The notes under the pieces were generated by a model that saw nothing but the letters and a program-made list of their open reading frames with translations, did no database searches and was not told the origin of the DNA. A DNA stretch of 64,000 nucleotides from Acidobacteriota bacterium (lineage in GTDB: Bacteria; Acidobacteriota; Blastocatellia; Chloracidobacteriales; Chloracidobacteriaceae), in contig DAOQNB010000001.1 of assembly GCA_035335845.1 (NCBI GenBank), positions 509 to 64,508 on the forward strand. Reading direction: 5' to 3'. Below are positions 6,841 through 53,038 of the stretch, one piece after another; the stretch's first letter is position 1, and the number at the start of each line of letters is the position of its first letter. The position numbers and the translations under genes were made by a program.

Positions 6841-9800
6841 GTGATGTGCTACATTCGCAAGCCATCTATGCCTCCGCAAAACATCAAATCCTACATCGAT
6901 ATTCAGCAACTTGATCAAATCAGCAACTTTCGAGAGGCCGAGGGCGAGCGGGTTGTTCGAGCATACCACTTTACCAGCGAATTAGGCCGGCTGGTGTCCC
7001 GTAATCTTGAGGCGATTGCCTCGCCTCGGACACCAGGGGCCATTCGGATTATTGCTGGCCCGCGCGGCGTTGGGAAAAGCCATCTGTTGATGCTGATTCA
7101 AACGCTTGCGTATAAGCCGCGTGCCCGGGCGCTTGTCAGCCAGGTGCCTCAGGTCTCAAACGCCGTTCGGCGACTTGAAGGAAGTAGCTTTGTCGTTGTT
7201 CAGGTCTCAGGGCCCACTCGTGGGGCAACCACCTTTGATTTCGGGATTGCCCTGCGCGAAGCACTCAGACATTCACCTGGAAACCCGATGGAGTTTGATG
7301 ATACTCAGTGGTACCTGGCCATTGAACACGGGCAGGTGTGTGAATTGATCTGCAGTAAGTTATTTCCTGGCATGGTTTTGCTGGTGACGATTGACGATGT
7401 CTCGGAAATTTTTCGATCAGGCAAACGCGAACTCATCACCAATACCTATCGCTGGCTGTCGTTACTGGCCATGAAAGCCCGTGACCTGCCAATTGTTGTT
7501 CTTCTGGCATTAGATAGTGATGTCATCGACCCGCAAACCGGACCCGCTGCCAAGCTGACAGCCGATTATCAGGTTGATGCCCTGTCGCAGGAAAGCTTAC
7601 GGCGGATCGCTGATCAGGCGCTGTTTCGCAAGAACCCGATTCAGCGATCTGAACTGCAGGCCCTCTATCGTGAGGCGTTACGACTGCTCCCAAATTTTAA
7701 GTGGAGTGAACAGGAGTTTATTGAGATGTACCCGGTTCATCCGGTTGTGCTCGATGTATCTCCTTCCATGTGCCAGTATTGTGAAAGTTTTTCACTGTTT
7801 GGATTTATGAACGCCGCCGCCGGGCGGGCGCTTGGGCGGCGACCGCTCCAGTTAATCTCGCTTGATGAATTATTTGATCGGTTTGAATTTGATTTGCGGC
7901 GGAACCCGGTGCTGCAACGCGGGCTGGAGGTTTATGATTTTCTGGCCAGCATTGTGATTCCTACGCTCGCGTTTGGTGATCGGCTCAAAGCAAAGCTGAT
8001 TCTGAAGGGGATTTTATTGTCGTCAATATCAGGTCGAACCGTAAATGCCTATGACCTGACCGATTCGCTCATGTTGTATGAAGAACGGAGTACGGATCGT
8101 GAATCTGCCTATCGCCAGACGTTTGCCATTTTACAGCAACTGGAAAACCTGGCCGAAGGCCAGTTGATCGGTAAGGAAGAAGGGATCTCCCGGCAGTATC
8201 AAATCACAATTGTGGAGCGGCTGGATCCAGAAGCAAAACTCAATGCCGCTGCCGCTGAGATTGCTTTTGATGACCCCCGGCTGTGTGCGTTGCTGGTGAC
8301 ACTGGGCGGGATTTGTTTTCAGGAATGGCCTTTTTCGGCTGACGCCTTGCTCATGGCAAATGCTGTGGAGCAGCGAACCGAGGTCACGGGTACGTGGCGT
8401 GGCACGCATCGCAAAGGCGTTGTGGTTTTTAACCAGCCCGTTGAACTGGCCATGTTACAACCGGTTCAGATTGAGCGTCATGAAGAACGTTTGACCCCGG
8501 ATGCCATCTCCGTGGATGCTGAGGTATTTGAGGTCAAATCCTCTGTCACAACACCGTCCGGATTACAGGAAGCCATTACGACTGAAGTCAAGGTGACATA
8601 TACCTATCAGTGGGCAGAAGAATGTTGTGAGCTAGACTGGCAGATTTCGCTCTTGCCAGCGATATATCCTGAAATTCCTGACACCGTGCCCCCAATTCCG
8701 AGCCTGTTATTTTGGAAGCCGGGGATGCTTGACGCCGCCGGCTGCGACATCCTGAAAAAAGCCTGGGTTGTGTATACCCGTGGGGAGGAAGTTTTAGGGA
8801 TTGAGGCGGCTGATCGCTTACAGTATCTTGAAATTCAGGTTCGCGAGTTATTTCTCAAGCTCTATATCGAACAGGGCCTGTTGATCAGCGCAACGGGAGA
8901 AAAGTATTCCGCCAAAAATTTCTGGCCGGATGGGACACTCCAGAAACGGTTTGTTGATTTTGTGGGGGTGTTGATTCAGACCCCACTGGATAAACGATTT
9001 CCACTCCACCCGGTCTTTCAATCAGGGCTGACCGAACGTGAAGTCCGGCGACTGGTCCTTGGACTCATGGGGGGATTGAACCCAACAGATGCTGCGGTTC
9101 AGGAATATGCTCTCAGCTATGCCGTACCATTGCATATTGTCACTGAACGGGAAGGGGTTTATCAACTGGCGGTTGATCGCGATGAAGCCCTGAGTCAGCC
9201 CTTTATTAGCGAAGTGCTCCGACTGGTGGAAGCCAGCGCCTCGGGTGACCCGATACCGGTCCAGGTGATTTACCAGACGTTGCGCCGTGAACCATATGGG
9301 TTGCTGGAGCCAGTCCAGCAATTGATTATGATGGCGCTGATTGCCGGTTGGCGCATTGAGTTGATTGATGTTTCGGGGTTGCGGGTTTTTGGCGCTGCCG
9401 AGTTAACCCAGGATGTCAGCTTTCGGCAATATGGAACGGTCCGCCGGACAGCGACGATCAGCTATTCGGCTGAAGTGCTCACCGAATGGTGTCGGTTATT
9501 AACTGAACGACCAGATCTGCCGGAGCTGACAGCCGTGCAGGCCCGGAAAATGATTCGCGAGGCACTGGCTGGCTGGTATCAGCGATGGGCTGACTTAAAC
9601 CTGGCCGAGCGGTTTAATTCATTGCCAGTTGAAATGATGACCACCCGTACCTGGCAGTTGATCATTACCTGCAAGCGATATTTTGAAACAACCTCAAACG
9701 CCGTTGAAGCGGTGTTGCACGAACGGATTTCACTGGAAATGGGGCTGGCTCGTATTGTCGAGGTTTTTTCCGCCAATCCAACCATTTTTCAGCGGGCCAG

Positions 9801-10680
9801 ACATGAATTTCAACTGCTGGTTGAGTTTCTCAACTGGCTCCCGTACTACATTCGGGCCAAGACCTACACCCTGACAGCCGTTCAGTTGAATAATGAGGAA
9901 ATCAATGCCCATCGGCGTGAACTGACTCATTTTTTTGATCATCCCCACCGGTTGCTTGATGAAGATAAGCGCCGCCGATTTGAAGCTACCTTTCGGAGTT
10001 TTCAGGATAAATTCACCAACCTGTACGCCACAAAACACGAAGACGCCATGACCAAACTGGTCAATCTGGAAACGCTCGAAGAGTTTCTGGCAAGTCGTTT
10101 GTGGCGCACCTTTGAGCTGGTCAGCCAGTTAAACATTGCCAACCCGCGATTTCTGGTTCTGGCTCAGGAAATGATCAAGCTGATTCGAGAATCACATTGT
10201 ACGCTTCCAGTGCGGGATATCTTATCGATTCAGCCGGCGTGCTCGTGCGGGTTTCGGGTTGGGTCAGTGACCCCCATCTCAACGATGGTTGAGGATTTGA
10301 AACAACTGGTTCGGACCGGGGTTGATTATCATCGCCGATTAATCTTCCAGTACCGCCCAAAACTCAGTCAGAATTTACGAACTGCAACCACGGCGACGGG
10401 TAGCAATAAAGACCAGGTGGGTGCCCTGCTGGCATTGATCAGCTCCGGAGAATCAACCACGGCCATGACCATGACTCCAGGTATGGTCGAGTTGATCAAT
10501 GAATTTCTCAAAGAGGAAACCCGTGTGATTCCTGCCTCTCCGCCCGCACCGTTTGTCCTGGGGGATCGGTTGACGAAAGCTGAGTTAAAATCCAGACTGA
10601 GTTCCTGGTTGGAAAGTCTTCCTGATGATGGAGATCTGGCATTTGAAATATCTGAATCGCCATTTGCAGGGGAGAATTAA
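6841..10680 (+). CDS. very large (1279 aa) P-loop NTPase, reminiscent of BrxC/PglY (DUF499/DUF6079) class, function unknown
   Basis: Single Walker A motif IIAGPRGVGKSH at ORF residues about 71-81 and a Walker-B-like LLVTIDDVSE. A YPVHP motif follows the NTPase core, then about 900 mostly helical residues, with CSCG near the C-terminus. GTG 6841, ATG 6844 and ATG 6868 are alternative starts. Confidence 0.8.
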   Translation: MMCYIRKPSMPPQNIKSYIDIQQLDQISNFREAEGERVVRAYHFTSELGRLVSRNLEAIASPRTPGAIRIIAGPRGVGKSHLLMLIQTLAYKPRARALVSQVPQVSNAVRRLEGSSFVVVQVSGPTRGATTFDFGIALREALRHSPGNPMEFDDTQWYLAIEHGQVCELICSKLFPGMVLLVTIDDVSEIFRSGKRELITNTYRWLSLLAMKARDLPIVVLLALDSDVIDPQTGPAAKLTADYQVDALSQESLRRIADQALFRKNPIQRSELQALYREALRLLPNFKWSEQEFIEMYPVHPVVLDVSPSMCQYCESFSLFGFMNAAAGRALGRRPLQLISLDELFDRFEFDLRRNPVLQRGLEVYDFLASIVIPTLAFGDRLKAKLILKGILLSSISGRTVNAYDLTDSLMLYEERSTDRESAYRQTFAILQQLENLAEGQLIGKEEGISRQYQITIVERLDPEAKLNAAAAEIAFDDPRLCALLVTLGGICFQEWPFSADALLMANAVEQRTEVTGTWRGTHRKGVVVFNQPVELAMLQPVQIERHEERLTPDAISVDAEVFEVKSSVTTPSGLQEAITTEVKVTYTYQWAEECCELDWQISLLPAIYPEIPDTVPPIPSLLFWKPGMLDAAGCDILKKAWVVYTRGEEVLGIEAADRLQYLEIQVRELFLKLYIEQGLLISATGEKYSAKNFWPDGTLQKRFVDFVGVLIQTPLDKRFPLHPVFQSGLTEREVRRLVLGLMGGLNPTDAAVQEYALSYAVPLHIVTEREGVYQLAVDRDEALSQPFISEVLRLVEASASGDPIPVQVIYQTLRREPYGLLEPVQQLIMMALIAGWRIELIDVSGLRVFGAAELTQDVSFRQYGTVRRTATISYSAEVLTEWCRLLTERPDLPELTAVQARKMIREALAGWYQRWADLNLAERFNSLPVEMMTTRTWQLIITCKRYFETTSNAVEAVLHERISLEMGLARIVEVFSANPTIFQRARHEFQLLVEFLNWLPYYIRAKTYTLTAVQLNNEEINAHRRELTHFFDHPHRLLDEDKRRRFEATFRSFQDKFTNLYATKHEDAMTKLVNLETLEEFLASRLWRTFELVSQLNIANPRFLVLAQEMIKLIRESHCTLPVRDILSIQPACSCGFRVGSVTPISTMVEDLKQLVRTGVDYHRRLIFQYRPKLSQNLRTATTATGSNKDQVGALLALISSGESTTAMTMTPGMVELINEFLKEETRVIPASPPAPFVLGDRLTKAELKSRLSSWLESLPDDGDLAFEISESPFAGEN

Positions 10681-15534: not shown

Positions 15535-17328
15535 TTAGCGGGTCTTGGCGATCTGAAAATTGGGGTTGGCCAGTTCTTCAATTAAAGTATACAGAGCCGG
15601 ATCAAGTTTCCGGAGTTCGTCACGGGTATGACGGCCAGTGATTCCTAACCCAGGGCGCTTGGAGATGGACACATAGGCTTCATACCCCTGGGCAAAGTAT
15701 TCCCACTCATTGGCTGCTGCATAGTAATCAAGGGTACGACCTTCTCGAACTGCTTTGGCATACAGTGCCTGGATGCGTTCCAGAAGGGGTTTATCAAACA
15801 CACTGCTATGAACCTGATGGGCAAATTCATGGGCAATGGTATTAAACCCACCCTGTTCGACCACATTCAGGTATTCAATTCCAGAAACTGTGACCAGTCC
15901 CCCAACCCCGCGAATACTGCTGTAATATCGGCCATCAAACGTGGTCCGATCTTCAAGCATTTCATACCCCGCGATTTCAGGAAGCTGGCGATCAAGTGGG
16001 AGCAGATAGTGTTTGGCCCCGCGTCGCTTTAATTCAGGAAGCAAATGGGCAAACGGGGCGACCGAAAGGTTGATAATTCGCTGCTGGTCAGCGGCAAGGC
16101 CAAAATAATTGACAAAAACCTCGCCAATATCAGTGGGGGCCGTTTGTTCAGGCGGAGCTGGAAGATCTGGCAGGTTGATTCCAACAGCTTTGCGGGCACG
16201 TTCGTGAAGTTCAGCGTGTGCAAGGCTTAACTGGAGTTGAGCTAAAGCATTTTCTGGATCAATTGTGGTTGCCTGTTCGGCTGCTACGGTCGCGAGTTCA
16301 AGGTTTCCGTCTGAAAGTGCACAGGCTCCAAGCCCAAGGTAGGCCTGAAGAAAAGCCGGTGAAAGCTGGGTTGCTTGCTCATAAGCCTCAATTGCTCGTT
16401 CTATTTCCTTACGCCGGGCAAAGTCAGAGGCCTTCTCGAAATATTTTTGGGCTTCGGGTAAGACCGCCGGCATAGCTTTTCGACTACGGATGTATTGTGA
16501 AAAAAGCCTTCGAATCCGGGCGTTATATGGATTAAGGTCAAGTACTTCTTGAGCTAACTTGCGAACTGCCTCTGGGTTGCGTTCAATCACCCGGACTGAG
16601 CACAGCACAGATTTTGCTTCGAGGTTAAAGGGATCCAGGTCAAGTGCGCGTTGGGCGGCTGAAGATGCCTGAGGGTAACGGTTTTGTTCAAGAAAAACCT
16701 TGGCTAACGTTGAGTAAACCGATGAATCATTTGGTCTTTTGGTCGAAAGTCTGGTGAGGATATTCTCACTTTGAGCATAATCACGATTGAGGAGTGCCAC
16801 GGTGGCTTTCCCCAGCCATGCCCGTGAGTCCTGTGGTGAGATCTGAAGTATTTTCTCAAAGAATTGCCCGGCAGTGACTGGATCTTCAATTGTTAGATAG
16901 AGTATGCCGTACGAATTGAGTAATGACAGGTAGGTTTCATCAACAGCTTTTGAGGCAACTGATTCAGGTTCCAGGCGTGCCTGGGCCAGGAAGGCGGCCT
17001 GGTGCAGAAATTCAAGTGATTGCTGGTAATCGAGTTTGATTCGGGCGATTTCGGCCAGCCCTAACAGGGCTGAGATATTATTTTTATCTGCAACCCGGGC
17101 TGTCTCAAACGCTCGTTCAGCTTCGTTTAAATGCCATTTTTGCCGCAGTGTCGCTGCCCGCCGGGTATATTCAGCCGCGATTTCGCTTGGGTGGGCTGAT
17201 TGTGCCTGAAGTGGAAGTGAATCAATGGTGCCGATAAAGCCAGTCAGCAAGAGAACATACACAAGGCCACGAAGGTGGTTGATGCCAGGAAAAGAGAAGA
17301 TGGGAAGTTGAGGTAAGCGCTCTTTCAT
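15535..17328 (-). CDS. TPR-repeat protein with a C-terminal HExxH metallopeptidase-like domain
   Basis: Multiple TPR units, a signal-like N-terminus from the ATG at 17328 (MKERLPQLPIFSF...LLLTGFIG) and a C-terminal FNTIAHEFAHQVH motif. The track start at 17490 is an upstream extension. Confidence 0.7.
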   Translation of the reverse strand: MKERLPQLPIFSFPGINHLRGLVYVLLLTGFIGTIDSLPLQAQSAHPSEIAAEYTRRAATLRQKWHLNEAERAFETARVADKNNISALLGLAEIARIKLDYQQSLEFLHQAAFLAQARLEPESVASKAVDETYLSLLNSYGILYLTIEDPVTAGQFFEKILQISPQDSRAWLGKATVALLNRDYAQSENILTRLSTKRPNDSSVYSTLAKVFLEQNRYPQASSAAQRALDLDPFNLEAKSVLCSVRVIERNPEAVRKLAQEVLDLNPYNARIRRLFSQYIRSRKAMPAVLPEAQKYFEKASDFARRKEIERAIEAYEQATQLSPAFLQAYLGLGACALSDGNLELATVAAEQATTIDPENALAQLQLSLAHAELHERARKAVGINLPDLPAPPEQTAPTDIGEVFVNYFGLAADQQRIINLSVAPFAHLLPELKRRGAKHYLLPLDRQLPEIAGYEMLEDRTTFDGRYYSSIRGVGGLVTVSGIEYLNVVEQGGFNTIAHEFAHQVHSSVFDKPLLERIQALYAKAVREGRTLDYYAAANEWEYFAQGYEAYVSISKRPGLGITGRHTRDELRKLDPALYTLIEELANPNFQIAKTR

Positions 17329-17718
17329 GACGATATAGATCGTGGACTCCTGTAGGTAAGCTAGGCCGAAAGAAGAAATTTGAAGGGATGTCGCCTGGAT
17401 CAAGAACCAGTTGATGGAGAGGTATTGCGGTGTCCAGTTGCCGTACTGGAGTGGTTGAGTCCTGAGGACAGCATCACCTTCACAAGACAAATTGTTTGGA
17501 TTGAATGGGCTGAAACATCAGAAACACAAGGAATTGAATTAGGAAGGTGTTTCTGTTTGGTAGAGATTTTGGATTTCTCCGACCACTAAAATAATACTGA
17601 ATGTGAAATCAATCAATCAATTTTTTGAATGACTATTCAGGATTTCGGAAATTTTAGCTTTCCTGGGGGGCAGAGGGAGGTTTTTGCTGAAAAGAGAGCA
17701 CCAGATCCCGGTTTTTTT

Positions 17719-19425: not shown

Positions 19426-19983
19426 AACAGTACTCCTTTGGATGATGAGCTGACGCTTTCTTCCTGTGCCAGGGGCTGACAAAGGTCACCGAGTATGCGG
19501 TAAGTTGAGTGATTTGGGCAATCCCAGATTAAAGACAAAATACCTGGGCTAGATGAGAATAGCAGAAGGTTCAGTTGGCGCATTGATGTACCTGGTATGA
19601 GGCAATCCTTGTTTATGATCTCGGAGAGTCGCCGCGCCAGAATTGAAAGCTCTGGTTGTTGAGTTTTAACTCAGTCAACCAAAAGAATGACTTCATCTCT
19701 CTGGTACCCCCAGGTCAGTCTTCCAAACAAAGTTCTTCATCAGAAGCGATCCGGTCAAAGGAAGTGAACTACCTGATTGCAGGAACTGAATAGTGTACAA
19801 TGTTCCGGCATACAAATATGTGAGATATTGAAACTCGAAGTAATCCAACTCTACGTTTGCAGGTCGAGATCTGAGGCTGTGATCTGACCGCACCCGCAAA
19901 CTGGGTGCTCCTTATATAGAAAGAGCACTTTTCTGGAGTGTTGATTTCCAAGCCAGCAGAATCTTTTTCTGAGGTGATTGAAT

Positions 19984-20124
19984 ATGTCCTGGATTCCTGA
20001 TGATGTGAAGGAAAGTCTCTTTAATGGAATTTGTTCTCTAGCGTCAAACCTTGGTACTCGTTTTTGGGGTGAGGAGAATCGGATTCGATTTGAACAATGG
20101 CGCACTGACCGGGCTTCTCAATAG
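19984..20124 (+). pseudogene. 46-codon N-terminal segment in frame with the NACHT ORF, ending at an in-frame TAG
   Basis: My translation is MSWIPDDVKESLFNGICSLASNLGTRFWGEENRIRFEQWRTDRASQ*. The ATG at 19984 follows GAGGTGA (about 19969-19975). The same frame continues after the TAG (20122-20124) into the 20179 ORF. Confidence 0.5.
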
Positions 20125-20178
20125 GAACTGAACGAAGCGCTTGAACGGGCAGCCAGGAGACTGGTTGAACGCTTTGAT

Positions 20179-23100
20179 GTGCCTGAAGCTCAGGCGCTTA
20201 ATTCAGGAGTCGCGATTCGTGAATTGGCTGCTCACCCCTTTGACCAGGATGCTGTCAAAACAGTTGAGCGCATTTTGTTATCTGTGATGCCGGATCATTC
20301 AGGTGGTCAACAGGCTGACGCCGTTCGATATTTTCTCCAGTGCCTGCTCGAAGAATTATGTTCAGTCAAGAAACTCCGTGAATTGCTTTCCCTGATTTAT
20401 CAGCAAAAGTCGCTGGCGCTTGAGATGAAGCAAGTTGAAATCAGTCAGAAGACTTTGGACGTGCTTGATCATCGAATGCCAGTTCCGCCTGATATTCAAA
20501 AAGCCCAACGCCAGTACCTGGACTATGTCGTGAGATGGAATCGTAAGCTTGAGGCACAGGGAATTATGCCGACCCATCGCTCAGTGACGCTGCCGCTTGA
20601 TGAAATTTTTGTCAGATTGACGTGTGATACAGAAAAGACAGAGTTTGAGCCGTTGAAACGAAGGCTGGAAAAATCAAAACTTGGAATTGTGGAGACGCCC
20701 GGATTTGATAACGAGTTTTTAGAGGATTGGCCCTTAGCTGAACACCTGTCAGCAGTGGTGCAACCCGAAGATGTGGACTTATCACGTATCATTGCTCATC
20801 ATCGTCAGGTGGTCATTTTGGGCGATCCCGGTTCGGGGAAGACCACACTCATGCGGTTTCTGGCATTTCATTTTGCCCGTGAATTTCGAGATCATGGCCC
20901 ACAGGGAATCGTGACTGATAAAGATGGTCAAACGTATGGGGCAGCTCGCTTTCCGATACTGATTCGCATTTCGACTTATGCCGAGGAACTGCGGCTCAAT
21001 CACAACACGTCATTCAGAGAGTTTCTTGCTGTACCATTTGGGGATACTGGGATTGAGTTGCCGGTTTTGAAACGTATTTTTGATCAAGTACTCCAGGATG
21101 GTGAGGCTCTGGTGCTGCTAGATGGCCTGGATGAGGTCACTGAGTTTCATGACCGTTCACAGCGCATTGCAAGTTTTGTATCGGCTGTTTCACCCAGGAA
21201 TCATTTTGTGGTGACCAGTCGAATCGCTGGCTATCGAGCTGCCAGATTAAGCGGGGACTTTCAACAATTCACCTTGCGGAAATTTGACAAGCCTCAGATT
21301 GAAGCGTTTCTCAATCAATGGTGCCTGGCCGTCGAACAATTTCACTATCCCGATTTGGCACCGTCTGATGTAGGTCGGCTGGCTCAACAGGAAATAGATG
21401 GAATCCTGCAGGCGGTGCATGAAAGTCGAGGCGTTTTAGAGCTGGCATCCAATCCATTGATGTTAATCATCCTGGCGTTGATTCACCGAAATGGAAAACG
21501 GCTTCCAAGCCGTCGAATTGAACTCTATGACTTGGCCGTAAAAACACGGTTGCGGGACTGGCAGCTCCAGCGAGGGTTAAGAATCGAACACGTCGTAAAA
21601 GAAAAAGATGCACTGTTGTTTTTGGCGCCGCTAGCATATTGGATGCATCAGGAACGGCCAACCGGACTGATAAAAACAAGCGAAGTGAAAGCCAGATTGA
21701 TGCCGTACCTGGCTTACTCGCGCCAGGTTTCGGTTGAAGATGAAAAAATTGAAGAAGACGTTGATGACTTTTTACGTCGGGTCAGAGAACATACGGGGGT
21801 TTTTGTCGAGCGGACGACCGGCCGGTATGGATTTATGCACCTGACGTTTGAAGAGTATTTTGTGGCACGTGAGATTGCTCGTCGAGCGAAGGAGTCAGCG
21901 GAGAAAATATACCCCTATCGGCATCATCCAAGATGGCATGAGCCGATTATGTTGGCTATTGGATTTATCAGTACTGATCGCCCAGATGATGCTTCTGAAT
22001 TGGTCCAAACTGCGATTCTTGGGGAAGGAGAAGAAGCCGGCCAGAAAAGTTTTACGGCAAGCCTCTTTGAGGACGTACTCCACCGGGATTTATTGCTGGC
22101 GGTTCAATGTCTTGGTGACTGCAATTCGACTGACACTGCTTTTCGCAAGCAAATTGTAACCAAATTTACTGAAGTCTACCTTGAGAGTCAGAATCTCCCA
22201 TTTGATAAGCGAGTTGAACTGGTACTGAAAAGGCTCAAAGGCAGCGATCTTGAAGCCGACTTGGTGGAAATCGCATTGAATCATCTTGATCATGAGAATG
22301 ATCGAAAAAGAGCAAAAGCGGTCACAATTCTGGGAGGATTGGCATTTTCAACACCTCAGCTTATAGATCAAATCCTTGACATGCTGGCGGATCAAAGTGA
22401 AAGCGTTCGAATTCAGGTCATTGTATATTTTGCCCAGTTTGGAAATCCTTCTCCTGAAGTACTCAAGAAAGTATTTGCTTCCATCGATACTGAACAAGGA
22501 ATGGTTCTGAATGCTGTCCCTTTTCTTTTTTGGAAAATGGAAAAACTATCTCCGGCGATAGAGACTATTCTCGAAGCGTATCTGGAAAGAGGAGAGTTCG
22601 TTGTTCAACTCAACATTGCGAGCAGGTTGAGTGGCTCTCCGGAAGCTGCAATAAGAGCGACCGGGAAGTTGATTGAGCGGATGAAGGGGTTGAGTGGGAT
22701 TGAAAAAGGTCAGGCAATGCTTTTGATCGGTGTGATTGGATGTGCAACCAGGATGGTTATACAGGCACTGGTTGAGCAACTTGAAGACCAGAATCCGGCT
22801 GTTCGTGAGGATGCCGTTATGGGGTTGAGTGAATTGTCTGGCAAGTCCCCAGACGTTTTACCGATTTTGTTGAAATATCTCAACGATACGAACAAAAAGG
22901 TAAGGTGGCAGGTAGTACGAGCGCTTGGGAAAATACCAGATCCCTCAGAAGAAATTGGTCTCATCTTGACTGAGAAATTAAATGATCAGAGCTGGTACGT
23001 TCAATCCTTCGCGGCAAGAAGCCTGAAACAATTGAATATGGTCTCTCCTCAGGTTGCCGAATCCTTCCTGGTCCGCTTAACAGTCGGAACTCAAGAAGAT

Positions 23101-23709
23101 GTGATTGTCACCCTTAAACTTCTTGGGATACTCGGGGTTGCGACCCAACGAACTGAAGAAACACTCTTGCGGTATGTGAAAGATGAGCGCGGTGAAGTTT
23201 GGCAAGAGGCACTCAAAACACTGTGTGACCTGAATTCCAAATCAAAGGTTGTTCTTGAAATGGTGACGAGTGCATTTGAAGATCAAAGCGAAATAGTTCG
23301 CCAGGAAGCGATTCAGTTGGTCAGAAAATACCAGTTTGCGACCCCTGGAATACTATGCCGGCTAGAGAATCTCCTGGAGAATGAAAGTGAAAAGATTCAG
23401 ACTGAAGTGCTCTATACTCTTCAGAAGCTCAAGGTCATCAATGAAGGATTATTAAAAAAACTTACCGAAAAGATCATAAACGAAAGTGAACTGGTTGGTG
23501 CACTGGCTGCATTTACTCTGGCACAATGTATAAAGTCACAGCCGATTCAATCTAATGAAGTCAAATCTCGGATCTTGAAACACACGTTCTCGGCATTTCA
23601 GCAATGTAACCAGGCATACCAAATCAGAATGGAATCGGGGCTTGTTCAACCTGGTTACGAGGTGTTGTGGGAACCACTATGGCAGATGTGTGAGGTTTTT
23701 GAGGTTTAG
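20179..23709 (+). CDS. NACHT-family STAND NTPase with C-terminal HEAT repeats (bacterial NLR-like)
   Basis: Walker A is VVILGDPGSGKTTLMRFL and Walker B is ALVLLDGLDEV. The pre-NACHT motif LPLDEIFVRL is present. The C-terminal roughly 500 aa consists of repeated HEAT/PBS-lyase-like units (e.g. DQSESVRIQVIVYF, DQNPAVREDAVMGL, NKKVRWQVVRALG, DQSEIVRQEAIQLV). The GTG at 20179 is the first canonical start after the in-frame TAG. Confidence 0.85.
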   Translation: MPEAQALNSGVAIRELAAHPFDQDAVKTVERILLSVMPDHSGGQQADAVRYFLQCLLEELCSVKKLRELLSLIYQQKSLALEMKQVEISQKTLDVLDHRMPVPPDIQKAQRQYLDYVVRWNRKLEAQGIMPTHRSVTLPLDEIFVRLTCDTEKTEFEPLKRRLEKSKLGIVETPGFDNEFLEDWPLAEHLSAVVQPEDVDLSRIIAHHRQVVILGDPGSGKTTLMRFLAFHFAREFRDHGPQGIVTDKDGQTYGAARFPILIRISTYAEELRLNHNTSFREFLAVPFGDTGIELPVLKRIFDQVLQDGEALVLLDGLDEVTEFHDRSQRIASFVSAVSPRNHFVVTSRIAGYRAARLSGDFQQFTLRKFDKPQIEAFLNQWCLAVEQFHYPDLAPSDVGRLAQQEIDGILQAVHESRGVLELASNPLMLIILALIHRNGKRLPSRRIELYDLAVKTRLRDWQLQRGLRIEHVVKEKDALLFLAPLAYWMHQERPTGLIKTSEVKARLMPYLAYSRQVSVEDEKIEEDVDDFLRRVREHTGVFVERTTGRYGFMHLTFEEYFVAREIARRAKESAEKIYPYRHHPRWHEPIMLAIGFISTDRPDDASELVQTAILGEGEEAGQKSFTASLFEDVLHRDLLLAVQCLGDCNSTDTAFRKQIVTKFTEVYLESQNLPFDKRVELVLKRLKGSDLEADLVEIALNHLDHENDRKRAKAVTILGGLAFSTPQLIDQILDMLADQSESVRIQVIVYFAQFGNPSPEVLKKVFASIDTEQGMVLNAVPFLFWKMEKLSPAIETILEAYLERGEFVVQLNIASRLSGSPEAAIRATGKLIERMKGLSGIEKGQAMLLIGVIGCATRMVIQALVEQLEDQNPAVREDAVMGLSELSGKSPDVLPILLKYLNDTNKKVRWQVVRALGKIPDPSEEIGLILTEKLNDQSWYVQSFAARSLKQLNMVSPQVAESFLVRLTVGTQEDVIVTLKLLGILGVATQRTEETLLRYVKDERGEVWQEALKTLCDLNSKSKVVLEMVTSAFEDQSEIVRQEAIQLVRKYQFATPGILCRLENLLENESEKIQTEVLYTLQKLKVINEGLLKKLTEKIINESELVGALAAFTLAQCIKSQPIQSNEVKSRILKHTFSAFQQCNQAYQIRMESGLVQPGYEVLWEPLWQMCEVFEV

Positions 23710-23811
23710 TTTTTGAGGGTTTGATCATCGTATATTGATCAAGAAAAGCCCATTTTTAAGTCAGTTGAACCTGATGGGCGCAAAGTCTATAGAAACCTGT
23801 TAACGGGTCGT

Positions 23812-23843
23812 AAAGCCTATGTCGGCGCGCCGACATAGGCTTT
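23812..23843. repeat. 32-nt perfect palindrome containing copy 2 of ATGTCGGCGCGCCGACAT, terminator-like, downstream of the NACHT gene
   Basis: AAAGCCTATGTCGGCG|CGCCGACATAGGCTTT is followed by TGTTTT. It lies about 100 nt after the stop at 23709. Confidence 0.8.
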
Positions 23844-24400
23844 TGTTTTATGTGTAAGTATTTGATTTTAAATGATTTGTATCTACGACTACTGCTTGTT
23901 TTGAAGTTCCTGTATTGCTGGCTATACCGCCGACAATGTCTGCCGACATTTTCGCAAACAGAAGTTGGAAACACGGTATTCACAGGAAAATTGCAGGCAG
24001 TCTCAGACCATGCTCGATAGACATAATCTGGTTTTTCAGTCTGATAAACTATTTGAGTGAGAAGAGAGGCCTTTTCCTCTGGTGATCGCCCAATTGTATC
24101 GTTGAGGTTGAACCTTGATTATTTATGAGGCAGGGAAGGTGTGAGGTTCTTCGAAGGCTCCCCCGACCAGAATCAGGCAAATTCAAATGCCAGATCTTTG
24201 TTCAGGTTTTTTTGGAGGTGGCCTCAGCAGGTGTAGTTGACAGGTTCAGACTTTGGGGATTTCGAATAAACGGGTGACCCTCTGCGGAGTGGATCGTTGG
24301 AATCTTCATCTGCCACCAGTGGTTTGGGTCATAAGGTCACCGTCAGGAGACCCAAAGACGAAAGCGTTCAAACCTGGACACCCTGAGCAAGAGGGAGGCT

Positions 24401-25030: not shown

Positions 25031-25416
25031 AAGAAAAATAAATTGAAGTAAAAAGAAGGTAGGTGATAGGTTGGCTACACCCTACTTGAAACCGGCAATG
25101 AGGATCAAGCGAAATCCAGGCTGTTCGAGAGAGAAGCGGTCGTTGATTTATTTAATGTGATTACATATGTTAAGATGTAGAAGATATATCTGTAAGCATA
25201 ATTTGTAATTTGTTAATTTTGCGTAATTTATTGATATTAATTTTGTAAATAGATGGGAATACAGTTATGTAATCTTTGAAATTACTTGTAAATACTATAT
25301 TAGACGTGACAGTAAATCCGGCTGACTGGACATCCCGAGTTGAAATTCCCTGTTGTTTGGGGAAAGATGGCGAAGACTTCAAAGATCAATCTCAATCTGA
25401 TTCTACCCACAAAAAA

Positions 25417-32190: not shown

Positions 32191-32697
32191 ATGGAAATCG
32201 AAATGAAAATTCGCGGTTTAATGATCGATCCAACCGCAAATACACCGATTGTGATTCTCAAAGATGTACACAGTGACGTCATGCTTCCGATTTGGGTGGG
32301 GCCGTTTGAGGCCAACGCGATTGCATTTGAAATCGAGAAAATGTCACCGCCGCGTCCGATGACGCATGATCTGATGCGAAACCTGATCATTCAGGTGGGT
32401 GGGAGTGTCAAGCGGATTGTGGTCACGGAATTAAAAGAAAATACGTTTTACGCGGTCATCGAATTGCAGGTTGGGGAACGGATTCTGTTTCTGGACTCGC
32501 GTCCAAGCGATGCCATTGCGCTGGCGCTCAGGACCGACGCCCCGATCTTTGTGAATGAAGAGGTCATTCGTGAGTCGAGCGCGACCCTGGTGGAAAAAGA
32601 TTTGGATGAAAGCGCTGAACCGGGTGAGAGTTCAGCTGAGGAAATCGAGTGGCCCGAAGAAATAGATGAATCGGATATGGATCGGTACAAAATGTAA
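32191..32697 (+). CDS. bifunctional nuclease (DUF151/BFN) family protein
   Basis: PIVILKD...LPIWVGPFEANAIA...RPMTHDL...FYA.I.L....LDSRPSDAIALALR is the conserved BFN core, followed by an acidic C-terminal tail. The ATG at 32191 is preferred over the track start at 32122. Confidence 0.8.
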   Translation: MEIEMKIRGLMIDPTANTPIVILKDVHSDVMLPIWVGPFEANAIAFEIEKMSPPRPMTHDLMRNLIIQVGGSVKRIVVTELKENTFYAVIELQVGERILFLDSRPSDAIALALRTDAPIFVNEEVIRESSATLVEKDLDESAEPGESSAEEIEWPEEIDESDMDRYKM

Positions 32698-32779
32698 ATC
32701 TTCTGTGAAAAGAGAAAGGAGCGACACTGCCTCGTCGCATACTGACTGGAATCAGTTCCAGGTCTGGTTCGAGATCCCA

Positions 32780-33595
32780 ATGAAAAACAAATCTCTGAAA
32801 TCTGAACGAAAAGCCGCGCCAGTTCCCGCCAAAGGTGCCGCCACGATTGCGATTGCCAATCAGAAAGGGGGCGTCGGAAAGACCACGACCACGATCAATC
32901 TGGCCGCGGCCCTGGCCATGCGTGGGAAACGGGTTCTGTTGCTGGATCTGGATCCGCAGGGGAACAGCACGCTTTCTTACCTCGATCAATCAAAAATAGA
33001 GCTTTCGGCCTATGATTTTTTGACCGATTTATCAATTCCAGCCGAAATTGTGATCCACCGTAGTCCAGTTGAAGGGCTGGATATACTGCCGGCCCGCATC
33101 AGTCTGGCCAAGTTTGAGACCCGGCTGGCCGGCGAGTTTGATGCGCCGTTTCGATTAAAAGACCGGCTGGAAGCAGTCAATACCCGGTATGATTACATTC
33201 TGGTGGACACGCCCCCAACCCTGGGGTTGATTACGGTGAATGCCCTGGTGGCATCGTCGCATGTTCTGATTCCGATTCAGTCCTCCTATTTTGCGCTGGA
33301 GGGAACGGACGATTTATTGGAAACGGTTGACAAGGTTAAGTCGCGGCCCAACCCGAATCTGAATATTTTGGGGGTGGTAATTACGCTGCATGACAAGCGG
33401 ACAACGCTGTCACGAGATATTTTTCAGCAGATTCGGCAGGTTTTTGGGGAGCGGGTGTTTAACACAGTGATCACCAAATCGGTCCGACTTGAGGAAAGCC
33501 CGGCCTATCGGGAGTCGATTTTTACCTATGCGCCGCAATCGAGCGGGGCCATCGAATATGCAACCTTGTGCGAGGAGGTAATCAATCGTGTCTAA
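32780..33595 (+). CDS. parA: chromosome partitioning ATPase ParA/Soj
   Basis: Deviant Walker [24 protein letters not shown], followed by [10 protein letters not shown] and [10 protein letters not shown]. The ATG at 32780 is preferred over the track start at 32666. Confidence 0.92.
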
Positions 33596-34430
33596 GCGAG
33601 GGCTTCCAACAACCGTCAAAATGCGGCATGAGGCACACTACGTTGAGGAATTGTGGCAACGAACCGGAGCGCCGATTGGGCGAATGATTCCGATTGACCG
33701 GTTGGAGCCGAATCCAAACCAGCCCCGAATGGAAATTGGCGATTTGACCGAACTGACGGCCTCAATTCGGGAAAAGGGGGTTTTGGAGCCGTTGCTGGTG
33801 CGTCCAAGTCAGGTGGGTGGGCGGTTTATGATTATTTCGGGGGAGCGTCGGTATCGAGCGAGCCTGATTGCGGGCTTAACCGAGTTACCCTGTATTGAGA
33901 TGGACGTTGATGACCGGGCGGTGGCAGAGATTGCGTTGATTGAGAATTTACAGCGCAAGGATCTGACCCCATTTGAGGAGGCTGAGGGGTTATCGACGCT
34001 GGTTGACCGGTTTGGGTATACGCATGATGAGGTCGCCAAAAAAATCGGGAAGTCCCGGTCATCGATTACAGAGGCGCTCTCGATTAGTTCGCTTTCGGAT
34101 GACATCAAGGAGTTATGCCGGGCGGCAAAGATTTCTTCAAAATCAACCCTGTTGCAAATTGTGCGCCAGCCGGGTGAGGATGAGCGGCGGGCATTGATTG
34201 CCCGGATTCAAAGCCAGGGGTTAACCCGAGACGATGTGCGTCGGGTCAGCAAGCCGCCAGCGCAGGGGAGACCGAGGCCTTTTTTATTTAAATTTCAGTC
34301 ACCGGCGCGTGAGTTCACCCTGGAGTTAAAATTTAAGCGGTCTCGGGTCGAGCGTGAGGAAGTTTTAACTGCATTGCGGCGAATCGTTGAGCAGTTAGAA
34401 CAGGAAGGGGCCAAAGAGGGTGACGGGTAA
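33588..34430 (+). CDS. parB: chromosome partitioning protein ParB/Spo0J
   Basis: LEPNPNQPR and the GERRYRAS box, then [14 protein letters not shown]. The gene overlaps parA by 8 nt and starts at a GTG. Confidence 0.9.
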
Positions 34431-34468
34431 GCCCCGGTTCGAAAAACATGTACCTGGCCAGGCAGAAG

Positions 34469-35026
34469 CTATTTGGATGGCTTGGCCTGGCTTTGTTGTT
34501 TGCGCAATTGTTGTTGATAGTGTGTTGACATCCACTTACCGAAGCGGTCCAGGTATGGGTAGATTGGTTTAAATAGCCTGGCCCGCCAGCCACTGTTGAG
34601 GTCTCGCCAGACGGTAAAATATTTTTCAATATAGGTGCGGACTGCTTTTTCACGCTGGTTTGGCTTCAGGCCGTGCGAGAGGGTGAAGTGGTAGTGCTGG
34701 CCGATGAGGGACAGCGTGGCACCGGCAAGATTGGTTTTTAAGTTCAACCGGCTGGCAAGTCGCTTGACCAGACCTTTCTGTTCAACAAAATTGGCAAGCG
34801 CGATTTCAAACCAGGCGGGCATCCCCATGACCTTTGGGTGGTAGAGGCAGGGAAGTTTCTCACGCATCTCCCTGGCGATGGCTTTTTCCTGAATGCGGTC
34901 AACGAGGACAACTTTGCTAATACCGCGGGTATGTTCTTTGGGGACAGCGTCAAACACGCTCTGGATGAGTTTTTCCAGGTCAGGTTTGACCTGGATCGAC
35001 GCCTGATTTTCGACTTTGATGGGCAT
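34469..35026 (-). CDS. hypothetical protein
   Basis: Open frame with plausible composition. The ATG at 35026 (MPIKVENQ) is preceded by AAGGAG 13 nt upstream. I recognise no motif. Confidence 0.5.
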   Translation of the reverse strand: MPIKVENQASIQVKPDLEKLIQSVFDAVPKEHTRGISKVVLVDRIQEKAIAREMREKLPCLYHPKVMGMPAWFEIALANFVEQKGLVKRLASRLNLKTNLAGATLSLIGQHYHFTLSHGLKPNQREKAVRTYIEKYFTVWRDLNSGWRARLFKPIYPYLDRFGKWMSTHYQQQLRKQQSQAKPSK

Positions 35027-35212
35027 AACCGGAAAATGACTCCTTTGTGGAAAAGCGGGAGTGTACGAAAGGAACCGGGCGGGGTCAAGGATCTGTTCCT
35101 TCTGAAGTATGAAGAAAAAAAGCAGTAAGACCATGGTACTTCAAGTAATACATGCAGAGTGTCACGTGGAACACCAACCTGATTGGATCACATAGAGTGG
35201 AGGGAAAGCTGG

Positions 35213-36121
35213 ATGGCACGCGATCTTGGAAAAGCATTTCTGGATTATTTACGAGTGGAGCGGGGGTTATCGGCCAATACCCTGGAGGCCTACGGACGGG
35301 ATTTAGAGAAGTTAAAGGGGTTTAGCGAGGCAGGCCAGCGGGATCTGCTGACGCTTGAGCGGCAGGACCTGGTTGATTTTATTCAAGTGTTGCGTGAGGG
35401 TGGGCTGGACTGGCGGTCAGTCGGGCGAGTGCTGGTCACGGTTCGAAATTTTTATAAATACCTGTTGCTGGATGGGTTTCGGAAGACCGATCCGACAGTT
35501 CATCTTCCGACGCCAAAGTCAGCCTCGGAATTGCCGCATTTTCTGACCATCGAGGAAGTTGACCGGCTGCTTGCCCAGCCTGAGATGAGTACTGAGATTG
35601 GAAAGCGAGACCGGGCGATCCTGGAGGTTCTGTATGCTACCGGGCTGCGGGTATCGGAAGTGGTAACGCTTAAGATGGTGGATGTAAATTGTGAGGTAGG
35701 GTTTTTGAGTTGCTTTGGAAAAGGCAGCAAGCAGCGGCAGGTCCCGCTGGGCAAGTCAGCGATTGAGTACCTGATTCAGTACTGGCCGGTACGGGCGCGG
35801 GCGCTGAAAGCAATCAAAGAGAAAGGAAAAGCACCGGGTTCAGAGCTGGTGTTTGTCACACTCCAGGGAAAGCCGATGACACGCCAGGGCTGCTGGAAGA
35901 TGATTGTGGAGTATGGGAAGCAGGCTGGAATTGGCCATATTACGCCGCACATGATGCGGCATAGTTTTGCAACGCATTTACTGGAGCATGGGGCTGATTT
36001 AAGGTCAGTGCAGGTTTTGCTGGGGCACAGTGATATTGCGACGACCGAAGTGTACACGCATGTCACCAATGATCGATTGAAAGAGGTGTATAAGCGATTT
36101 CACCCGCGAGCTCAGTCATAG
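35213..36121 (+). CDS. xerD: tyrosine site-specific recombinase XerC/XerD family
   Basis: The N-terminal SAM-like region is FLDYLRVERGLSANTLEAY. The catalytic residues sit in ATGLRVSE, HMMRHSFATHLLEHGADLRSVQVLLGHSDIATTEVYTHV. GGAGGG lies upstream of the ATG at 35213. Confidence 0.88.
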   Translation: MARDLGKAFLDYLRVERGLSANTLEAYGRDLEKLKGFSEAGQRDLLTLERQDLVDFIQVLREGGLDWRSVGRVLVTVRNFYKYLLLDGFRKTDPTVHLPTPKSASELPHFLTIEEVDRLLAQPEMSTEIGKRDRAILEVLYATGLRVSEVVTLKMVDVNCEVGFLSCFGKGSKQRQVPLGKSAIEYLIQYWPVRARALKAIKEKGKAPGSELVFVTLQGKPMTRQGCWKMIVEYGKQAGIGHITPHMMRHSFATHLLEHGADLRSVQVLLGHSDIATTEVYTHVTNDRLKEVYKRFHPRAQS

Positions 36122-52956: not shown

Positions 52957-53038
52957 GGCCCGGTGGTGGAATTGGTAGACACGCAGGTCTTAGAAGCCTG
53001 TCTTGCAAGAGGTGTGGGTTCGAGTCCCACCCGGGTCA
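52957..53038 (+). tRNA. tRNA-Leu, anticodon UAG
   Basis: I folded it by hand. The acceptor stem is GGCCCGG/CCGGGTC (one G-U pair) and the D stem is GTG/CAC. The anticodon stem CAGGT/GCCTG carries the loop CTTAGAA. The variable arm is 13 nt (type II). The T arm is GTGGG-TTCGAGT-CCCAC and the discriminator is A. CCA is not encoded. Confidence 0.9.

Follow-up and report, generated by a model that had tools for sequence, protein, structure and literature searches.

Does the NACHT gene that lies between the DUF969/DUF979 pair and ruvA in an Acidobacteriota bacterium encode a recently acquired immune sensor, or is it a resident chromosomal gene that is being lost? The DNA analysed here, referred to as the window, is a 64,000-nt stretch of contig DAOQNB010000001.1, and coordinates of the NACHT gene are given in window numbering. 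A preliminary description of this DNA had proposed a horizontally acquired, AT-richer island carrying a candidate single-gene immune sensor. The NACHT gene has instead been inactivated recently, and at least three times independently: in the species of the window, in a third lineage represented by contig L177 (88.5% identical to the window gene), and in the lineage of L001, a 147-kb contig of GCA_016208495.1. Early pseudogene decay is the preferred reading of the locus, and we assign it a probability of about 0.6. We infer, rather than observe, that no product is made from it today.

The open reading frame (ORF) listing of the window contains a NACHT ORF of 1176 amino acids (aa) that starts from GTG and occupies 20179-23709 on the plus strand. 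The same frame remains open upstream as far as an ATG at 19984, and the whole frame (19984-23709, plus strand, 3.7 kb) has a single interruption, an in-frame TAG at codon 47 (20122-20124). The encoded protein begins with a helical N-terminal domain, continues with a canonical NACHT NTPase and has HEAT repeats over about 430 aa towards its C terminus. Around the stop, the orthologues P0002 and P0128 read RAS(K/Q)KELSEAL and the window reads RASQ*ELNEAL, where the asterisk denotes the stop. Because both orthologues have lysine at this position, the TAG is a single A-to-T change of the lysine codon AAG. The preliminary description had hinted at this stop by proposing to express the gene with its TAG repaired, and the stop is indeed real: a 46-aa product ending at codon 47 has been called on seven contigs from seven samples, including the metagenome-assembled genome GCA_964601695.1 and an unrelated activated-sludge study (ERZ937806). 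With this recurrence, an assembly error is ruled out as its source. In this DNA, TAG serves as a normal stop, ending 13 of the 41 window ORFs, the NACHT gene at its own end among them. Reassignment or readthrough of the stop at codon 47 is thereby ruled out, and the sole tRNA of the window is an ordinary tRNA-Leu (anticodon tag) and no amber suppressor.

Further lesions were catalogued by aligning conspecific contigs, which are 98-99.8% identical, to the window frame. The window itself is without 30 nt (10 codons) at about 20201. The deletion is in-frame, and the lost codons encode F-x-DLPSV-x-x-A, the motif that is conserved best in the N-terminal domain, where LRSD and NRERV are conserved as well. 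It is polymorphic, being present in some conspecific contigs and absent from L172, L174 and L176. Single-nucleotide frameshifts lie at 20200 (-1, contig L173), at 20311 (+1, five conspecific contigs) and at 20463 (-1, four conspecific contigs), and contig L172 carries a CAA-to-TAA change at codon 428 together with a -1 at 21795, inside the NACHT module. The indels are located outside homopolymers and occur in differing combinations, which look like recombining haplotypes. As a result of these lesions, the N-terminal domain is broken in every strain sampled. All the sequences are metagenome assemblies and contigs repeatedly break within the NACHT gene, as might be expected if the TAG and the frameshifts were assembly or sequencing errors in a gene that is actually intact. 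However, the identical TAG comes from two studies and arose by substitution rather than by insertion or deletion; the frameshifts lie outside homopolymers and are common to several contigs in haplotype-like combinations; and the ten neighbouring genes are free of lesions. An intact gene disguised by errors is therefore scarcely credible.

The two other lineages have lost the gene by different lesions. In L177, the lysine at codon 47 is intact but the gene carries 10 frameshifts and 5 nonsense substitutions. In L001, whose gene is 74% identical to that of the window, a single 1-nt deletion at codon 706 splits the gene into ORFs of 746 and 514 aa, and the remaining seven indels between the window and L001 are all multiples of three. 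The L001 contig encodes P0002 (72% identical), the closest full-length relative. No other gene is broken in the 22 kb shared with L001, where ten neighbouring genes are intact. The ratio of nonsynonymous to synonymous substitution rates (dN/dS) between the window and L001 is 0.19 for the NACHT gene, compared with 0.02-0.13 for these ten neighbours. This ratio indicates that the NACHT gene has been under purifying selection through most of its history while evolving faster than its neighbours. Because the long-term dN/dS is 0.19, the losses are considered to be both recent and independent.

The gene order GWxTD, MFS, folP-NUDIX, TPR, DUF979, DUF969, NACHT, ruvA, sigma-54 regulator, beta-propeller, ABC, RecN-like is shared between the window and L001. 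DNA identity between the two is 78-79% in the flanks and 74% in the NACHT gene, and dS is about 1 (saturated). The NACHT gene is also found in L177 and in all conspecific contigs. Because GCA_016208495.1 has the same gene order, the gene was at this site before the lineages split. It had been asked whether the interval between DUF969 and ruvA is empty in related genomes; in GCA_016208495.1 the NACHT gene is present there. In a RuvA scan of genome contigs and a DUF969 scan of metagenome contigs, which may have hidden closer relatives, all relatives among the matches listed are at most 50% identical at the protein level, and none has DUF969/979, ruvA and NACHT together. Because such relatives have no shared gene order at all, they are uninformative on an empty interval, and the question is answerable only within the clade.

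Base composition had been given as a ground for proposing an island. The NACHT gene does have the lowest G+C content (GC, 0.464) and the lowest GC at third codon positions (GC3, 0.445) among the 41 long ORFs of the window (z about -2.3 and -2.0, respectively), and long non-coding stretches flank it. The claim that it is more A/T-rich than its neighbours, however, holds clearly only against DUF979 (GC 0.525), the one neighbour well above it. The next-lowest values belong to its direct neighbours, namely DUF969 (GC 0.469, GC3 0.449), ruvA (0.476, 0.462), the sigma-54 regulator (0.486, 0.474) and the TPR protein (GC3 0.460), and only 0.5-1.7 points separate the NACHT gene from DUF969 and ruvA, with less than 1.5 points in overall GC. 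The GC trough is broad (15.5-27 kb, about 11 kb), includes housekeeping genes and recurs in L001. Much of the GC deficit arises at codon position 2, where GC is 0.350 because the helical repeats are rich in Leu, Glu and Lys, so that it reflects amino-acid composition. No integrase, insertion sequence or flanking direct repeat was found at the locus, and the sole tRNA in the window lies at 52957. The leader upstream of the gene is conserved as well. Because synteny is shared with a genome that is 74-79% identical and mobility genes and repeats are missing from the locus, the NACHT gene is not a recently acquired island but a vertically inherited chromosomal gene of an uncultured Acidobacteriota lineage. 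The preliminary description had itself taken conserved synteny as telling against an island, and conserved synteny is what was found. Nor could the gene be restored trivially: repair must go beyond the TAG because the 30-nt core deletion is also present. A recent AT-rich island with an active or easily repaired single-gene sensor is thus very improbable.

Some observations fit less comfortably with decay of the whole gene. A simple pseudogene would be expected to collect lesions uniformly over its length, but those in the species of the window cluster: three frameshift events and the in-frame deletion fall within 370 nt after the TAG, and the other 3.2 kb contain two disabling events, which come from a single contig (rough binomial P 0.01-0.02, calculated from very few events that are linked by descent and hence not independent). 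The NACHT-HEAT body is open in six of seven contigs. Nonsynonymous and synonymous polymorphisms number 11:9 in the NACHT module and 14:8 in the HEAT array; with a site ratio of 3.36, this gives a ratio of nonsynonymous to synonymous polymorphism per site (pN/pS) of 0.36-0.52, compared with the long-term dN/dS of 0.19; this is not the value of about 1 expected of an old pseudogene. Codon 165 is ATG (20476) in all nine conspecific sequences, compared with TTG in L177 and CTG in L001, and this ATG is derived and fixed in the species. Taken together, the clustering, the pN/pS, the open body and the ATG at codon 165 leave room for a truncated product. The N-terminal domain would then be dead, and a NACHT-HEAT protein translated from ATG 20476 would be maintained by selection as an NLR-like protein with no effector, serving for example as a regulator, as a decoy or as the partner of another STAND protein. 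Consistently, every N-terminal lesion (codons 47-160) lies upstream of this ATG, frameshift density is about 10 times higher in codons 48-170 than downstream, the NACHT motifs are all intact, and gene callers place the start of P0001 at the Met encoded there. However, no Shine-Dalgarno sequence precedes ATG 20476, in contrast to the GAGGTG at the original start. Moreover, L172 has a nonsense codon and a frameshift within the NACHT module, and the body decays in the sister lineages (in L177, and at codon 706 in L001). Very few events were counted, and at a divergence of about 1% the pN/pS measured within a species is as a rule either inflated or uninformative. A selected truncated protein is possible but doubtful, and early decay of the whole gene remains the preferred reading.

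The junction between the NACHT module and the HEAT array is dimorphic. A cassette at 21943-22420 (480 nt, aa 654-812) exists in two allele classes that are about 72% identical to each other in a population that is otherwise about 99% identical. Class 1, found in the window, L170, L171 and L174, is 90.6% identical to the L177 lineage, and class 2, found in L002 and L164, stands closer to the L001 lineage, at 83.6% identity. One sample (ERZ27268159) contains both classes, and several contigs break exactly at the left edge of the cassette (21940/21943). Within the cassette, dN/dS is 0.12 and dS is about 1.6, so that it is regarded as an exchanged or long-maintained functional allele rather than a product of hypermutation; each class is backed by two independent contigs, although a small probability of metagenome chimerism remains. 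Divergent alleles confined to a sensor-proximal part, signs of recombination and repeated loss of copies are also seen at fungal and animal NLR loci (PMC13449251, PMC12222747). The likeness is one of resemblance only, because the host of the window gene is bacterial, the gene is a single copy in stable synteny, and a 480-nt cassette differs from the shuffling of repeat units. A bolder proposal combines the cassette with domain-specific decay: the output domain would have been discarded, the NACHT-HEAT body would be expressed from ATG 20476 under selection as an effector-less bacterial NLR, and the cassette would be an ancient trans-species dimorphism under balancing selection on ligand recognition or autoinhibition. 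This combination is distinctly unlikely. If it were true, it would be a bacterial parallel to the truncated or regulatory NLRs and the trans-specific NLR polymorphism of eukaryotes.

The encoded protein can be described part by part (Table 1). Pfam NACHT (PF05729) matches aa 209-381 of the ORF with 38.0 bits against a cut-off of 26.7, and the NPHP3_N and nSTAND3 models also score above their cut-offs over the same P-loop region. The Walker A motif GDPGSGKT (nt 20821, codon 280) fits GxxxxGK[ST]. The Walker B motif LLDGLDE (nt 21115, codon 378) contains D-G-L-D-E, which fits the NACHT-specific signature D[GAS]hDE used to define the clade by Kibby et al. (10.1101/2022.07.19.500537). The motifs VVTSR, SNPLML and FMHLTFEEYF of the NACHT module are intact as well; the latter two, located after the NTPase core, are common to all homologues, and this part has no sequence match in the PDB. 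By its sequence, the protein meets the definition of a NACHT-clade STAND NTPase. The C-terminal third matches HEAT_2 (four stretches, E 2e-32), HEAT and HEAT_PBS in Pfam, and a PDB sequence search relates the array to artificial alphaRep proteins (E down to 4e-23), for which reason it is assigned to the PBS-lyase type. No tandem DNA repeats were found in the HEAT region. The NACHT core and the HEAT/PBS-lyase-type repeats that had been recognised from the sequence alone are thus borne out, the repeats at about 430 aa rather than the roughly 500 aa first given.

Table 1. Features of the NACHT locus, in window numbering.
Feature	Position	Strand	Basis
Promoter and 5' leader of the NACHT gene, conserved	19795..19983	+	Near-invariant in comparison with L001; sequence read
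Original start ATG 19984, first 46 codons of the N-terminal domain, premature TAG 20122-20124	19984..20124	+	Frame translation; orthologues P0002 and P0128 have K (AAG)
Rest of the NNH2-like all-helical N-terminal domain, codons 48-164, with the 30-nt in-frame deletion at about 20201	20125..20475	+	Alignments, hhalign
Internal ATG (codon 165) and pre-NACHT linker with the conserved YLDYVV...RSVTLPLDEIFV motif	20476..20802	+	Linker kept family-wide
NACHT NTPase module: nucleotide-binding domain, predicted helical domain and winged helix; motifs all intact	20803..22095	+	Pfam, motif positions
Dimorphic cassette at the NACHT/HEAT junction	21943..22420	+	Two allele classes about 72% identical
HEAT (PBS-lyase/alphaRep-type) array, short C-terminal tail, normal stop TAG 23707-23709	22351..23709	+	Pfam, alphaRep
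Intrinsic terminator: perfect hairpin with 16-bp arms (23812-23843), then T-rich tail	23812..23853	+	100% conserved in L001
Spacer between the convergent NACHT gene and ruvA, poorly conserved	23854..24400	.	No ORF or RNA family match

The N-terminal domain is the part of the protein that the lesions have destroyed. The repaired 281-aa N-terminus has no Pfam match at E <= 1 and no NCBIfam match, in agreement with the initial impression that this helical region contains no recognisable enzymatic effector. The homologues carry two related N-terminal types. The common type matches NNH2 (NACHT N-terminal Helical domain 2, PF22734) in 18 of 20 cases, and the type found in the window matches the same model in only two of nine close relatives (E 1e-3). 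A search for NACHT and NACHT N-terminal helical domains therefore returns NACHT directly and NNH2 only at the level of profile kinship: hhalign relates the two types with 98.1% probability (E 7e-14, 181 columns), both alignments having taken in 12 residues of the shared pre-NACHT motif. This comparison suggests that the domain is a divergent, profile-level relative of Pfam NNH2. In common with NNH2, it is all-helical, about 170 aa long and located at the extreme N terminus, and sister NACHT-HEAT proteins carry a bona fide NNH2. In contrast to NNH2, the window protein and seven of nine close relatives miss the Pfam model, and the sub-family of the window is also fused to NB-ARC, nSTAND2, AAA_35 and KAP NTPases. 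To our knowledge, no function has been assigned to NNH2 or to this sub-family.

A profile of the window type, trimmed before the pre-NACHT motif, retrieved 406 cluster representatives at E <= 1e-3 (222 at E <= 1e-10) among 1.84 billion, and nearly all of the 150 matches listed out of the 406 begin within about 30 residues of the N terminus. In the matches sampled, the domain precedes at least five classes of NTPase: NACHT-HEAT, NACHT with an FGE-sulfatase sensor, NB-ARC-TPR, NB-ARC-WD40, nSTAND2, AAA_35 and KAP. Among proteins from outside the window, an NNH2-like N-terminus stands before nSTAND2 in P0127, AAA_35 in P0146, NACHT-FGE-sulfatase in P0151, NB-ARC-TPR in P0156, KAP in P0234 and NB-ARC-WD40 in P0236. 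NACHT-HEAT relatives of the window protein fill the N-terminal position instead with DUF4062, TIR, metallophosphatase or PNP_UDP. Such a distribution would be expected of an output module, either an effector or an adaptor. A confident AlphaFold2 model of the domain of an intact orthologue (predicted local distance difference test 84.8, predicted template-modelling score 0.71) has nine helices. On this model, codon 47 is located in helix 3 and the 10-residue deletion takes out helices 4-5. Searched against the PDB and BFVD, the model has no structural neighbour with E < 0.1, the best values being 0.37 and 0.13, respectively. A Bcl-2-like or pore-former fold was considered and rejected as noise, the Mcl-1/Bcl-2 chains having a best E of 0.37, a template-modelling score of about 0.19 and a root-mean-square deviation of about 15 Å.

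In the ancestral, intact protein, the HEAT solenoid would bind a ligand or guard a host factor. Binding would free the NACHT module for nucleotide binding and oligomerisation, and oligomerisation would in turn cluster the N-terminal helical domains, which would act as the output in the role of effector or adaptor. This sequence of ligand, oligomer and output is proposed from a comparison with those bacterial NACHT and Avs proteins that have been characterised. Bacterial NACHT (NLR-related) proteins are a known kind, and the window gene appears to be an inactivated example of it. Both HEAT sensors and NNH domains are listed by Kibby et al. (10.1101/2022.07.19.500537) in their census of bacterial NACHT proteins, and the earlier statement that such combinations are much less characterised than other versions was overstated. 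The window protein agrees with the bNACHT proteins of that census in its central NACHT with D[GAS]hDE, its C-terminal repeat sensor forming a superstructure (HEAT being listed there), its N-terminal NNH output position and its single-gene organisation. It differs from them in belonging to none of the experimentally validated families, in a divergent N-terminus that Pfam misses, in being an inactivated copy and in lying outside a defence island. The same logic, combining an effector with a STAND NTPase and a sensor made of alpha-helical repeats, is seen in the Avs proteins. These were reportedly described by Gao and colleagues in 2022 as antiviral STAND pattern-recognition receptors. The NTPase of the window protein is of the NACHT clade unlike that of most Avs, the protein has no enzymatic effector, and no PADLOC match to Avs/AVAST models was obtained. 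Helical-repeat sensors are the majority type among antiviral STAND proteins (10.64898/2026.01.04.697583).

How far an immune role can be extended to this family depends on its relatives. The family bears hallmarks of conflict-system STAND proteins, as had been supposed, because its NACHT-HEAT body is also found in relatives headed by TIR, DUF4062, metallophosphatase or PNP_UDP domains. The reading of the gene as a candidate immune sensor is accordingly a reasonable one at the level of the family, by virtue of this architecture, but does not hold for the present copy unrepaired, in which the N-terminal domain has been destroyed in every sampled strain. Several points also count against the immune reading. 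We know of no experiment in which phage defence has been traced to this NACHT-HEAT family or to an NNH2 domain of any protein. PADLOC, which had been proposed as a check, returned no qualifying system, only weak partial matches (HEAT-ARM_XIII with 38.6 bits on the repeats, and matches to the P-loop only). The neighbourhood consists of housekeeping genes and is not a defence island. The NCBIfam model antiphage_EruA gives 44.8 bits against a cut-off of 1000, which does not qualify; no paper corresponding to the name EruA was found in the literature searched, and an unrelated regulator of E. coli bears the same name. That the N-terminal domain might recruit an effector encoded by another gene was also considered and rejected, as no conserved partner gene adjoins the window gene, its L001 counterpart, P0003 or P0031.

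These points would suit a family of housekeeping or signalling STAND ATPases, no longer needed by the clade, that has nothing to do with immunity. The position of the gene among uvrA, folP, ruvA, recN-like and parAB is stable across lineages at dS of about 1, the database searches return neither a PADLOC system nor a qualifying antiphage_EruA score, and P0003 and P0031, both intact homologues, each stand as a single gene with mostly housekeeping genes around it. However, TIR, DUF4062, PNP_UDP and metallophosphatase, found at the N-termini of same-body relatives, are typical conflict-system effectors (Kibby et al., 10.1101/2022.07.19.500537). The NACHT gene also outpaces all of its neighbours in rate of evolution, its sensor junction contains a dimorphic cassette that is deeply divergent, and repeated independent loss fits the turnover expected of defence genes. 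A housekeeping role is thus rather improbable, and the gene is preferably regarded as a decaying member of an immune-type family.

The flanks of the gene had been described as lacking convincing ORFs. This is correct in that no ORF with a family match, and no credible Rfam match even at permissive E-values, was found in them, but they are not featureless, containing a conserved 190-nt leader and a hairpin terminator. About 190 nt before ATG 19984 are nearly invariant in comparison with L001, whose coding flanks are only 78% identical. The leader contains a palindrome resembling an operator or a leader hairpin, GTGCTC-N12-GAGCAC (19905-19928), and a Shine-Dalgarno sequence, GAGGTG (19971-19976), located 7 nt upstream of ATG 19984. 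The heptamer GCCGACA occurs as two inverted copies in the terminator hairpin (23812-23843) and as two direct copies at about 23928-23950, and both places are conserved in L001. The leader of DUF969 (minus strand, 19483-19600, upstream of DUF969/DUF979) is conserved between the window and L001, for example in CAAAGGTCACCGAGTATGCGG ... GATTTGGGCAATCCCCAGAT. Although Rfam gave no match to this stretch, it may have a regulatory role.

Elsewhere in the window, a DUF6079 protein of 1279 aa (6841-10680, plus strand) has a weak BrxC/PglY (BREX ATPase) match, with no other BREX genes nearby and an orthologue in L001. The TPR-repeat protein at 15535-17490 (minus strand) is 90% identical to its L001 orthologue, and its C-terminal 100 aa or so weakly match ATLF and M90 metallopeptidase models. 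The spacer at 25031-25400, between ruvA and the divergent sigma-54 response regulator, is very AT-rich (GC 0.34). The cumulative GC skew peaks at about 36 kb with a change of sign, adjoining a parA/parB pair (32666-34430), and a replication landmark may lie inside the window at about 32666-36000.

Because the NACHT-HEAT architecture is already catalogued and the copy is broken, the locus makes a poor candidate for a novel system of defence. Its value lies in the natural series that it provides, in which each of three related lineages has independently lost one immune-type gene, the chromosomal site of which is fixed. Within a single species, the polymorphic lesions and the segregating two-allele cassette offer a possible small case study of how chromosomal, non-island defence-type genes turn over in slow-growing environmental bacteria. 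The N-terminal module, portable and helical, found before at least five classes of STAND/AAA NTPase and with no structural neighbour, offers a sensible starting point for studying signalling by effector-less NLRs in bacteria. This module and the pattern of parallel loss with dimorphism are the parts of the analysis most worth keeping.

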